Source: Acidobacteriota bacterium
Lineage (GTDB): Bacteria; Acidobacteriota; UBA6911
Assembly: GCA_035506515.1 (NCBI GenBank)
Contig: DATJPG010000072.1
Coordinates: 2,353 to 66,352, forward strand
Direction: 5' to 3'
DNA: 64,000 nucleotides
A program made the position numbers and the translations under genes. The notes below the pieces were generated by a model. It did no database searches, had not been told where the DNA came from, and saw only the letters and a program-made list of their open reading frames with translations. Shown piece by piece: positions 32,792-35,806 of this stretch. Position 1 is the first letter of the stretch, and every line of letters begins with the position of its first letter.

Positions 32792-33235
32792 ATGAGTTCA
32801 CTGAATAAGATATTGCTCATTGGAAACCTGGGAAGAGATCCCGAAATCCGCTACACCCCCGAAGGCACTCAAGTGGCGACTTTCAGCCTTGCAACGAGCG
32901 AGAACTGGACGGACAAGAGCGGAACGCGCCAGGAACGCACCGACTGGCACAACATTACTGCATGGGGCCGGCTGGCCGATTTATGCAAAAGGTTTCTGGC
33001 CAAGGGACGCCAGGTGTATGTCGAAGGTCGAATCCACTACCGTGAGTTTACCGATCGCGATGGGAACAAGCGTTCGAGGCCTGAAATTACGGCCACGCAG
33101 ATCGTACTTCTGGGCAGCCGCGCTCAGAGCGCAGAATCCGGCGCTCAACCCATGGAGCCGATCGGGAATGTCCCCTCGGAACCGGATCAGCCTTTTGGCG
33201 ACGCCGGCATCACGGACAGCGATATCCCCTTTTAA
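32792..33235 (+). CDS. ssb: Single-stranded DNA-binding protein
   Basis: LNKILLIGNLGRDPE, TDWH, VYVEGR, acidic DSDIPF tail. Confidence 0.96.
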   Translation: MSSLNKILLIGNLGRDPEIRYTPEGTQVATFSLATSENWTDKSGTRQERTDWHNITAWGRLADLCKRFLAKGRQVYVEGRIHYREFTDRDGNKRSRPEITATQIVLLGSRAQSAESGAQPMEPIGNVPSEPDQPFGDAGITDSDIPF

Positions 33236-33258
33236 GCCTGTTGGCAGGATCGAATATT

Positions 33259-34311
33259 GTGCCGCGAAATACCAAACGACGAAGGTTGACGGAATTCAGC
33301 AGTTCTGCCGGTTGAGCGAGCAAAATGAGTCCGGCGGTGCTGGATCGGATTTTGTCAAAACTCCCGCGCCAGGAAGACGATCGTCTGCTTGTCGGGTTCA
33401 GGAATAAGGATGATGCCGGAGTCTACCTGCTTCACGAAGGCTTGGCCCTGGTTCAAACGACGGATTTCTTCACGCCGATTATCGACGACCCCTATCAGTT
33501 CGGACAGATCGCCGCCGCCAATACCCTTTCGGATGTATATGCAATGGGCGGCCGCCCCTTGACGGCTCTCTCCATCGTCTGCTATCCGGAAAATGGCGAT
33601 TTGGAAGCACTGGAACGGATTTTGATTGGCGGCCTGGACAAGATGATTGAAGCGCAGTGTACCGTTGTAGGCGGCCACATGGTACGCGACGAGGAGATCA
33701 AATTCGGTTACGCTGTGACCGGAACAATCGACCCCGCTTCCATCTGGGCTAATGCAGGCGCGCAACCGGGGGATGCACTCCTTCTGACCAAACCATTGGG
33801 CACCGGCGTTATTTCAACCGCCATACGCGCCGGCAAGGCGAAGCCTGAATGGGCCGATATGGCCGCACGCACCATGAGCCGTCTCAACAAAGATGCGGCG
33901 GTGGCGCTGATGTCCCTCGGCAGTGCGGTTCACTCCGTCACCGATATCACCGGATTCGGATTCCTGGGGCACGCCTGGGAAATGGCGAGTGCGAGCTGCG
34001 TCAGCCTCCGGTTGGACAGTCGTGCTTTTGAACCGCTCGATGGCGCCATGGAATGCATACGCAACGGCTTTCTAGCCGGTGGGTTGAAAAAGAACCGGGA
34101 ATTCGTCGGAGACTGTGCCGTTTTCGCGCAAGGCATCTCGTTAGAAATGCAGCAACTCCTATTTGATCCTCAAACATCCGGAGGGTTGCTGGCAGCAATC
34201 CAGCCGGACTCGGCCCAGCGCGCCCGGGAGTTGCTGATTCAGGCAGGTTGCCGTGCCATGCAGGTCGGCGAAGTCGTAGGCAAAACATCCCCACTCATCT
34301 CCGTTCGCTAG
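33259..34311 (+). CDS. selD: Selenide, water dikinase; selenocysteine-containing (Sec19, TGA 33313-33315), 350 aa
   Basis: Reading through the TGA gives MPRNTKRRRLTEFSSSAG-U-ASKMSPAVL, matching the RLT...G-[C/U]-x2-K active-site loop. Also DDAGV, TTDFF, SDVYAMGG, GGH, DITGFG, DPQTSGGLL. GTG start with a GCAGGA RBS. Confidence 0.92.
33329..33345 (+). promoter_or_regulatory. Candidate bacterial SECIS stem-loop
   Basis: GTCCGGC-GGT-GCTGGAT stem; the G-containing apical loop starts 21 nt after the UGA. Confidence 0.55.
34264..34309 (+). repeat. selD 3'-end repeat copy A (the functional gene end)
   Basis: 37/46 nt identical to 34910-34955. Confidence 0.85.
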
Positions 34312-34330
34312 TACCTGACTTGACCAAATT

Positions 34331-34369
34331 AGTAACCACATTTTTTGCCGGATACTCCGATCAGCCCCG
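34331..34369 (+). repeat. 39-bp perfect direct repeat, copy 1
   Basis: AGTAACCACATTTTTTGCCGGATACTCCGATCAGCCCCG, identical at 34808-34846; weaker similarity extends about 18 nt to the left. Confidence 0.95.
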
Positions 34370-34427
34370 CAATTTCTTCCCTGTCCAGCACACGATCTAA
34401 TTGCTCGGCGGCTAAATGAGCCAAAAT

Positions 34428-34505
34428 TTCTTCGCGGTCTTTGCGGTCTTCGCGGTTTATTTCTTTCCAAAATTGAACCGCGAAGACCTCGAAGACCGCA
34501 AAGAA
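34428..34505. repeat. 30-bp imperfect inverted repeat built from 9-nt units
   Basis: Arms 34428-34457 and 34476-34505 pair at 27/30; unit CCGC(G/A)AAGA x3; 18-nt spacer. Confidence 0.9.
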
Positions 34506-34512
34506 GACATTT

Positions 34513-34790
34513 TTATGGGCTTCGTACTTGTCGTTCACGCCAGATTATGCGCTGGATTCCATCCCTGATGCGCGGGACCTTCCAGCTAATCAGGAAGTCG
34601 ATGGAACGCCCGCTCAGCTTGAGATAGGTAAGCAACTGGGCTCGATGGACAGGATGGATCGCATCGACAGTTTTGTTTTCGACGAGTATGCATTCATCAA
34701 CCAGGAAATCGGCCCGATATCCACAATCGAGCACGACCTCTTTGTAGCGGATAGGAACAGGATATTCCGTGTAGACATCCAGCGATAGAA
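34513..34790 (-). pseudogene. GxxExxY family (PD-(D/E)XK-like) protein, N-terminal third missing
   Basis: YPVPIRYKEVVLDCGYRADFLVDECILVENKTVDAIHPVHRAQLLTYLKLSG...RIRDGIQRI matches the family C-terminal part. The GxxExxY motif itself is absent, and the ORF-track N-terminus comes from the repeat. Confidence 0.78.
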
Positions 34791-34908
34791 CCTGATTTGA
34801 CTGAACAAGTAACCACATTTTTTGCCGGATACTCCGATCAGCCCCGGCCATTTATCAGCAATTTGTGAATTAATACCGAGATTTCCCCAAAAATCCGGTC
34901 AAGTCAGG
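34791..34908. mobile_element. 118-bp MITE/REP-like unit
   Basis: Left end CCTGATTTGACT (10/12 match to the TIR), right end GGTCAAGTCAGG; contains direct-repeat copy 2 (34808-34846). Confidence 0.5.
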
Positions 34909-34909
34909 G

Positions 34910-34955
34910 GTTGGTGAAGTCGTGGGCAAAGGCTCCCCGGTCATTTCCGTTCGCT
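34910..34955 (+). repeat. selD 3'-end repeat copy B (displaced gene fragment)
   Basis: Encodes VGEVVGKGSPVISVR versus VGEVVGKTSPLISVR in selD. Confidence 0.85.
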
Positions 34956-34977
34956 CGTATAGTGCGTCATTGATCCC

Positions 34978-35005
34978 TTGACATTTAGTCGGTGTGAATT
35001 AGATT
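34978..35005 (+). promoter_or_regulatory. Orphan sigma70-like promoter overlapped by a palindrome
   Basis: TTGACA-16 nt-TAGATT; GTGAAT-tag-ATTCAC (34994-35008) overlaps the -10. No + strand gene follows. Confidence 0.35.
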
Positions 35006-35080
35006 CACTCAAAGGCCTCAAAGACAAAAATATCCACAGATTTCACAGATTGAGGCATGGGGGCGGCGCCTGGAGTTGCC

Positions 35081-35806
35081 TCAATATCGGAAGGTGGCCT
35101 TTTTGATCTCTTTGCGGAAATCCAGGCCGCGAATTTCCACTTCCCTGCACATTTCATACAGGCGCGAACGCAAGCGCGTGCCGATGCGGTCTGTCAGAGA
35201 TTCCTCTCCCTGTTTCGAAGGAGTATCCAGGTAGTTGGACGTGAAGATCGTCAGCTTCTTATCGTTGTAGCGGCAGTTAATGATGTGGGCGATCGTGTCC
35301 CGTACCCATTCCGTCGGCTTGTTGGCACCGAGCTCGTCAAGGACCAGGACCCGCGCTTCCAGAACGGGCCTCAAAACTTCCAACTCGGACGTCTGCGAAA
35401 CGGAATTCCAGCTCGCCTGTATTTCCCTCAAGAGATCGCGGAAATCATAGAAAAGGCCTCCGTCTCCTTTTTCCATGACCACCTGTTTCAGCAGCGCAAC
35501 AGCCAGGTGCGTTTTTCCGACACCACAGTTGCCGAGGAACAGCAAGCCGACATCAATCTGCGGATACTTGTCCAGAAAGCGCTGGACGTAAATTTTGGCA
35601 TTCTTCTGCGACTCATGATTCGGCAGATAGGAGTCCAGATCACAGTGCTCATACCGTTTGGGAATTCTGGCTTCGGAAAGGAGCCGTTCCACTCGTGCCG
35701 ATCCAATACAGCTGCAGCGGCGCACTTTCGCGCCATTTTCCGCCGGCTCCCAGCCGGATCCGCTGCATTTGGGGCATATCTCCGGGATTGACGATTGCGT
35801 GCTCAT
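35081..35806 (-). CDS. DnaC/DnaI/IstB-family AAA+ ATPase with an N-terminal Cys cluster
   Basis: CPKC...CSC, Walker A GNCGVGKT, Walker B LVLDELG, FTSN, RLRSRL. Confidence 0.85.

Follow-up and report, generated by a model that had tools for sequence, protein, structure and literature searches.

A defunct IS1634-family mobile insertion cassette with a GxxExxY passenger as the probable source of a duplicated selD end in an acidobacterial genome

Introduction

In an Acidobacteriota/Terriglobia MAG (G000; 97.65% complete), the selenophosphate synthetase gene selD is followed by a 595-bp insert and then by a second copy of its own 3' end. How the end of this gene came to stand twice, and what lies between the two copies, is the question raised by the locus. 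It is contained in a 64,000-nucleotide stretch, positions 2353 to 66352 of contig C72, which was analyzed as a whole and is referred to here as the window; coordinates given without a contig name are positions in the window. An initial annotation, made from these nucleotides alone, had proposed that a recent, non-autonomous MITE/REP-like element defined the breakpoints, either by insertion or by recombination between two copies. We compared the locus with the rest of its genome, with 30 genomes of the genus, and with 107 other genomes of the class. With a probability of roughly 0.85, we conclude that the insert is a defunct mobile insertion cassette of the IS1634 family, in which a MITE is combined with a GxxExxY passenger gene, and that it is flanked behind selD by a 51-bp target-site duplication (TSD).

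Results

Intact selD with a duplicated 3' end

On the basis of sequence, open reading frames (ORFs), and domains, selD was assigned to the plus strand at 33259 to 34311, with a GTG start at 33259, an in-frame TGA (Sec) codon at 33313 to 33315, and a stop at 34309 to 34311. This gene is the insertion target and was left intact. A domain search retrieves both AIRS and AIRS_C from its product once the TGA is read through, and orthologues are found in 28 of the 30 congeners. The product is a selenoprotein in which U lies in the context ...SSAG-U-ASK...; an ORF that starts from the ATG at 33325 leaves out the N-terminal segment that includes the U (Sec) codon.

Two nucleotides (TA) separate the selD stop from the 12-mer CCTGACTTGACC at 34314 to 34325. 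The perfect reverse complement of CCTGACTTGACC occupies 34897 to 34908, and the second selD 3' copy starts at the next base, 34909. The inverted repeat is thus present as initially annotated, with one arm 2 nt past the selD stop and the other abutting the displaced copy. A repeat finder aligned the two copies of the selD end over 51 nt at 80% identity, with 10 of 51 positions differing. The left copy of the TSD (34263 to 34313) comprises the final 49 nt of selD, stop codon included, and the TA that follows. The right copy (34909 to 34959, likewise 51 bp) does not code for protein and has drifted, so that TCG stands in place of the stop TAG. Both insert junctions are spanned by Logan contigs from three wetland metagenome runs; the joint of an empty selD site was not found in the contigs of these runs, and contigs cannot show its absence.

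A second, unrelated repeat family is represented at 34955 to 35060, starting in the last bases of the right selD duplicate. This repeat is ∼95 to 100 nt long, is present in at least 10 copies in the genome (82 to 88% identity), and holds a promoter-like pair, TTGACA-N16-TAGATT. It is not found at this site in the genomes carrying the closest selD relatives (G017 and G042), and it gave no Rfam match.

Composition of the 595-bp insert

The insert (34314 to 34908, minus strand) was classified as a non-autonomous IS1634-derived element, or mobile insertion cassette, from its genome-wide relatives, its flanking duplications, and its ends, which are those of a parent insertion sequence (IS) described below. 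The minus strand is the reading direction both for its passenger gene and for the transposase of the parent. Neither the ORF list nor the domain search revealed a transposase gene within the 595 bp, the only gene being a truncated member of PF13366.

At the selD-proximal side lies a terminal 56-nt end segment (34314 to 34369, minus strand), which corresponds to the right-end side of the parent IS and holds the 12-nt terminal inverted repeat at 34314 to 34325. It is followed by segment A' (34368 to 34457, minus strand), a duplicate of the leader and first ∼25 codons of the GxxExxY gene; in intact copies of the element, positions 55 to 144 occur twice. Segment A' is most simply read as the 5' fragment of a second, tandem copy of the gene. 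The repeat finder also retrieved a hairpin at 34428 to 34505, with 35-nt arms that are 86% complementary and 9-nt periodic. Each arm is made up of three 9-nt repeats (CGCGAAGAC-like), and one arm is the leader/start region of the GxxExxY gene. An Rfam scan of 33100 to 35200 at E ≤ 1 gave only sub-threshold matches of the hairpin to miRNA models, which we judged to be chance.

The passenger gene is a pseudogene remnant of the GxxExxY/PD-(D/E)XK family (34516 to 34785, minus strand). The minus-strand ORF at 34513 to 34851 matches PF13366 only over profile positions 39 to 117; this copy has lost the spacer, the leader, and the first ∼38 codons, and it lacks the GxxExxY motif of the N terminus. 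Beyond it lies a 118-bp unit (34791 to 34908, minus strand), which is identified below as a MITE derived from an IS by internal deletion. This unit begins with a degenerate internal end copy, CCTGATTTGACT at 34791 to 34802, which matches CCTGACTTGACC at 10 of 12 positions, and it ends with the perfect terminal inverted repeat at 34897 to 34908. Nuclease homology stops at ∼34785, some 5 nt short of the internal end copy, and hence almost where the initial annotation had placed the junction between the two.

Longer repeats surround these short ends. According to the repeat finder, the terminal inverted repeat extends over 17 nt (34314 to 34330 and 34892 to 34908), and a direct repeat of 64 nt (89%) runs in register between 34306 to 34369 and 34783 to 34846. 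Within it lies the previously noted 56-nt repeat (34314 to 34369 and 34791 to 34846), whose core of 38 to 39 nt is identical in both copies; no such match is expected by chance. Taken alone, the 12-mer CCTGACTTGACC carries no significance, since chance predicts 3.55 matches at ≤2 mismatches and 3 were found. The significance of the ends therefore derives from the longer repeats and the genome-wide copies.

A family of composite elements in the genome

A BLAST search with the 118-bp unit, which had been suggested as a check on the initial annotation, showed it to be multicopy in its genome, with 8 full-length matches (83 to 86% identity) and ∼10 partial ones. About a dozen loci, many of them at contig ends, share the architecture of 34314 to 34908. 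These element loci contain 22 of the 23 matches to the 13-nt end at ≤1 mismatch and all 13 PF13366 matches of the genome.

Read in gene orientation (the minus strand of the window), a full copy starts with an outer inverted repeat and ∼50 nt of sequence. In copies that we term type II, such as that of the window, the other end is then present as an internal copy and completes the 118-bp unit. A spacer, a leader of three 9-nt repeats, the GxxExxY gene, and the inverted leader motif (which forms the hairpin) come next, and the copy closes with the ∼90-nt repeat of the gene 5' end and the 56-nt end segment with the other inverted repeat. The internal end copy is absent from a 762-bp type I element with an intact gene, which is obtained by joining contigs C39 and C161 across their exact 141-nt overlap. 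A type I copy thus amounts to a MITE with a GxxExxY cassette at position ∼62, and in a type II copy a MITE precedes a type I that lacks its 5' part. Most other copies in the genome carry internal deletions and most of the genes are broken, while the end structure is unchanged.

The composite recurs with identical internal junctions at six or more further loci, each with its own flanking duplication. Because the same composite is found elsewhere, it must be older than the selD insertion and have moved as a unit. The initial proposal of an inserted element was in this respect correct in kind and too narrow in extent: the 118-bp unit is not the insert, and the entity that moved is the whole 595-bp composite.

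A further arrangement was observed at C185:4300-5400 and at locus L143 of the congener G011, where a 3' gene fragment, a hairpin, a full gene, and another hairpin follow one another. This order suggests tandem GxxExxY gene cassettes separated by hairpins.

Flanking duplications and empty sites

Seven end pairs in the genome have their own imperfect flanking duplication of 29 to 54 bp, so that the search for target duplications bore out the proposed insertion. Duplications that abut the ends exactly measure 51 bp (window), 44 bp (C75), 37 bp (C161a), ∼52 bp (C39/C161b), and 33 bp (C178/C153), and a further one, of 29 bp, lies to the left of the C133 copy and to the right of the C130 copy. The remaining match, of 52 bp, links the left flank of C130 to the right flank of C5 at an offset of 23 nt from the end. 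Three duplication pairs join ends that are located on different contigs. In the offset match, the C130 left flank recurs nearly identically 23 nt past the C5 right end; the flank matches among C130, C133, and C5 suggest that element copies have exchanged sequence or that the MAG contains strain variants.

The genomes with the closest selD relatives, G017 and G042 (selD 83 to 84% identical), contain the 51-bp segment only once and hence have an empty site, and in both a convergent dnaC-like gene ends within ∼10 to 20 nt of the selD stop. The two flanks of the C75 copy are likewise adjacent in both genomes. Among 15 congeners (closest selD match, 64 to 84%), ten of whose sites were inspected directly, no solo MITE was found at selD. 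Because the local duplicates abut the inverted repeats and the sites of relatives are empty, the second, diverged selD end is a long TSD that has drifted and not a replacement end carried by the element. Together with the congeners G011 and G021 discussed below, about 20 junction pairs with variable duplications of 29 to 121 bp were found.

Two insertion sites, at C75:45570-45610 and in the C178/C153 flanks, adjoin a REP-like motif, GCAGTCGGCAGTCGGTAGTA. Matches to this motif are scattered over several congeneric genomes.

The parent insertion sequence and derivation of the MITE

An autonomous IS with the same two inverted ends is present in the complete genome of the congener G011 (OY761556.1, positions 6057793 to 6059434; 1,642 bp). 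Its termini are CCTGACTTGACCG... and ...GTGGTTACTAATTCGGTCAAGTCAGG; the ends CCTGACTTGACCG and CGGTCAAGTCAGG match those of the window element, and the last 26 to 29 nt of the IS are common to the IS and the unit. The sole ORF (490 amino acids [aa]) matches NF033559, the model for IS1634-family transposases, at 325.8 bits over profile positions 6 to 479 of 483 (curated cutoff, 100 bits), and it also matches PF01609 (DDE_Tnp_1). IS1634-family members are 1,500 to 2,000 bp long, have the terminal consensus C-----YT, and usually generate AT-rich duplications of 5 to 6 bp (De Palmenaer et al. 2008, PMC2266710). The parent fits this family in its length, in its termini (CCTGACTT), and in its score above the NF033559 cutoff. 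A transposase flanked by the same ends, which the initial annotation had named as a further check, therefore exists in a congener and is a DDE enzyme. Of the two affiliations in the original label, MITE is retained and REP-like is not, the parent being a DDE IS of the IS1634 family.

A 13-nt sequence, ATGTGGTTACTAA, occurs twice in the parent, ∼90 nt from the left end and 29 nt from the right end. Removal of the interior between the two copies leaves 117 bp that are collinear end to end with the 117- to 118-bp units (92/119 and 87/122 positions identical). Because of this end-to-end alignment, we identify the 118-bp unit as an internal-deletion derivative, i.e., a MITE. Outside the ends, unit and parent are only 71 to 77% identical. 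The parent is present as a single copy in 1 of the 30 congeners and has no recognizable target duplication there. The gene immediately upstream of this autonomous copy (G011 L192:365-1744) is that of an IS701-like transposase and may be the reason why the duplication is missing.

Distribution among congeners and beyond

The 26-nt end is found in 8 of the 30 genomes of the genus, with 24 ends in G011 alone, and in none of the 107 other genomes of the class. When the genome collection was scanned for exact matches, only G011, one Acidobacteria MAG contig (one match), and one MAG labeled Bacillota were retrieved. In the last (L210; JAEXTV010000016.1), a solitary 28-nt IS end, CCTGACTTGACCGAATTAGTAACCACAT, was observed at 286 to 313; neither a transposase gene nor a GxxExxY gene lies less than 8 kb from it. 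This copy may represent horizontal transfer or a mis-binned contig.

The GxxExxY gene is patchy in the genus (12/30 genomes). G021 contains an element of type II layout with an intact gene and a 52-bp flanking duplication, and solo units are found both in G011 and in G018, where the GxxExxY gene is absent. In an alignment of units from four lineages, including G018, G021, and G011, the terminal repeats pair and the interior is not convincingly conserved.

Flanking duplications in G011 measure 48 to 121 bp at ten loci. At several loci of this genome (L186 to L191 and L194), we observed tandem arrays of element plus flanking duplicate, with 2 to 4 repeats and periods of ∼175 to 405 bp, which would most simply be products of unequal crossing-over between the long duplicates. 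Other observations in G011 concern elements with a constant IS right end and no IS left end (L186, L187, L188, L189, L195, L196, and L197). Their 5' boundary is variable, yet each has its own duplication of 50 to 121 bp. A simple two-ended DDE model fails to explain these left-end-less elements with long duplications.

Cognate transposase and age of the insertion

No cognate transposase was found in the window genome: a tblastn search with the G011 transposase gave nothing at E ≤ 1e-40 and a best match of 24% identity, and an unassembled copy may exist in a MAG that is 97.65% complete. These best matches came from two other IS1634-family transposase genes (∼570 to 590 aa; 24% identical to the parent), which were observed on C186 (∼22 to 24 kb) and C85 (∼0.5 to 2.3 kb), and their products score 346 and 303 bits, respectively, against NF033559. 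Because no cognate enzyme was found, any mobilization in trans in this genome would be historical or would have relied on an unassembled copy.

The event at selD had initially been called recent because of the identical core of the 56-nt repeat. Our results point the other way. The insertion is probably old, since the family copies are 83 to 88% identical to one another, the selD duplicate differs at 10 of 51 positions, the passenger is truncated, and no cognate transposase was found. In the window copy and in the C178/C153 copy, the terminal and internal 56-nt copies share private substitutions that are missing from other elements. Judging from these substitutions, gene conversion within each element, and not youth, would be the simplest explanation of their similarity.

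Discussion

Taken together, the data are best accommodated by the following scenario. An IS1634-family IS of ∼1.64 kb would have lost its interior, including the transposase gene, between the two 13-nt direct repeats ATGTGGTTACTAA, giving rise to the MITE. On the minus strand of the window, the 595-bp cassette would then combine this MITE with a 5'-less GxxExxY gene, the 9-nt-periodic hairpin of that gene, the stub of a second gene, and a second IS right end. Acting in trans on the two outer inverted repeats, a cognate DDE transposase would have placed the cassette 2 nt past the selD stop. We infer that the target strands were attacked 51 bp apart, in which case the final 49 nt of selD and the 2 nt beyond them would have been duplicated during repair. 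Because repair would have duplicated the target, the 3' end of selD could stay intact while the second copy drifted beyond the element.

Recombination offers another route to such a scar. In this account, which the initial annotation had left as an option, two MITE copies that were already present underwent homologous recombination or unequal crossing-over, which joined the GxxExxY fragment to the second selD end. The two copies of the 56-nt segment are indeed in direct orientation, 477 bp apart; exchange between elements seems to have occurred elsewhere (the C133 left flank pairs with the C130 right flank), and G011 contains tandem arrays of element plus duplication. However, one composite with an unchanged set of internal junctions recurs at six or more loci, where every copy has a duplication of its own, and it is seen again in G021; we therefore consider recombination most improbable as the origin of the selD locus. 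The duplicated gene end might also recall a site-specific integrative element that targets the selD 3' end and brings a replacement, in the manner of tRNA- or gene-end-targeting islands, which bring their own replacement gene end. In line with this account, the two selD ends are only 80% identical, and it is the functional one that has retained the protein sequence. However, the ORF list shows no integrase in or beside the 595 bp, the other copies lie at unrelated sites with their own local duplicates and no shared attachment core, and, as in TSDs, nothing separates the duplicates from the terminal inverted repeats; such an element is barely credible here. Two further candidates were rejected. 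A diversity-generating retroelement acting on the selD duplicate was discarded, as the differences are not adenine specific and the ORF list shows no reverse-transcriptase-like ORF around the insert. A target-primed, LINE-like insertion, prompted by the constant 3' end and the variable 5' boundaries and duplications in G011, was dropped given a DDE parent with the same ends.

The passenger itself could instead be the agent of movement. The GxxExxY PD-(D/E)XK nuclease would then recognize the CCTGACTTGACC ends and introduce staggered nicks, leading to long duplications by a homing-endonuclease-like or cassette-type action. Its gene is the sole protein gene inside the elements, all PF13366 matches of the window genome lie there, and no cognate transposase was found in that genome. 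The gene is also bracketed by 9-nt-periodic inverted repeats and patchy (12/30 genomes), and the position of the type I cassette inside the MITE, at ∼62, indicates that the cassette may have moved alone at least once. Nonetheless, we regard the nuclease as a highly unlikely mover of the element, and neither the ends nor the duplications call for it. The element ends also bound an IS1634-family transposase; G018, which lacks a GxxExxY gene, contains a solo unit with such ends; and the genes are broken in most copies of the window genome while the end structure remains the same. Moreover, IS1634 and IS1549 make long, variable duplications without such a nuclease (PMC2266710).

We therefore return to an IS1634-derived cassette and to how it compares with known systems. 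Long, variable direct repeats of 8 to 514 bp have been described for IS1634 and IS1549 (PMC2266710); according to the literature, there is no mechanistic model of long duplications in this family. The duplications reported here, at 29 to 121 bp, belong to this atypical long class of the family and not to the 5- to 6-bp class; since most members make 5- to 6-bp duplications (PMC2266710), long ones are not a family-wide trait. IS1634 (Mycoplasma mycoides) and IS1549 (Mycobacterium smegmatis) resemble the parent in transposase family, length, termini, and long variable duplications. In contrast, the host here is an acidobacterium (Terriglobia), and the window element lacks a transposase and carries a GxxExxY passenger.

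In ISfinder nomenclature, MITEs and mobile insertion cassettes are transposase-less IS derivatives that are activated in trans by a cognate transposase (PMC3129680). The elements described here share with them the IS ends, the lack of a transposase, the multicopy state, and the target duplications, and their 595- to 762-bp forms enclose a passenger gene; they presumably need a cognate transposase in trans as well. One example of this kind is IS231 and MIC231 of Bacillus cereus, a MITE/mobile insertion cassette system with duplications of about 10 bp. Unlike MIC231-type cassettes, the present elements have an extra internal copy of an IS end and duplications of tens of base pairs, and their passenger is a suspected selfish nuclease gene with inverted repeats of its own. 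The 118-bp unit also resembles REPs and BIMEs in being short, multicopy, hairpin capable, and intergenic at gene ends. REP/BIME sequences are tied to IS200/IS605-like Y1 (RAYT) enzymes and, to our knowledge, REPs do not have a structure of terminal inverted repeats plus target duplication. Here, by contrast, the ends belong to a DDE IS, whose transposase is the only enzyme found flanked by them, and insertion is accompanied by target duplications.

A more layered reading of the family may be entertained tentatively, although we hold it to be doubtful. The elements could be nested selfish layers, in which an acidobacterial clade of IS1634-type elements that generate long TSDs (29 to 121 bp) in almost all of their insertions took up an independently mobile GxxExxY cassette at MITE position ∼62. 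This nuclease cassette, bounded by its 9-nt-periodic inverted repeats, would now be hitchhiking on the IS ends. If so, the family would offer natural material well suited to studying a duplication mechanism for which there is so far no model, and the left-end-less copies of G011 would point to a non-canonical, possibly one-ended, mode of insertion.

With the IS1634-derived cassette as the preferred explanation, the apparent scar behind selD is an ordinary transposon insertion, and the second selD end is not a repair or targeting device. The literature holds essentially nothing on the function of GxxExxY/PF13366 proteins. For the annotation of this widespread, uncharacterized family, it is relevant that all matches in the window genome lie inside non-autonomous IS1634 derivatives. 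The ∼20 junction pairs with duplications of 29 to 121 bp add to a phenomenon that the 2008 review documented only for IS1634 and IS1549. Otherwise, the element is a fossil mobile element of an uncultured acidobacterium, and it shows how GxxExxY genes travel within the genus.
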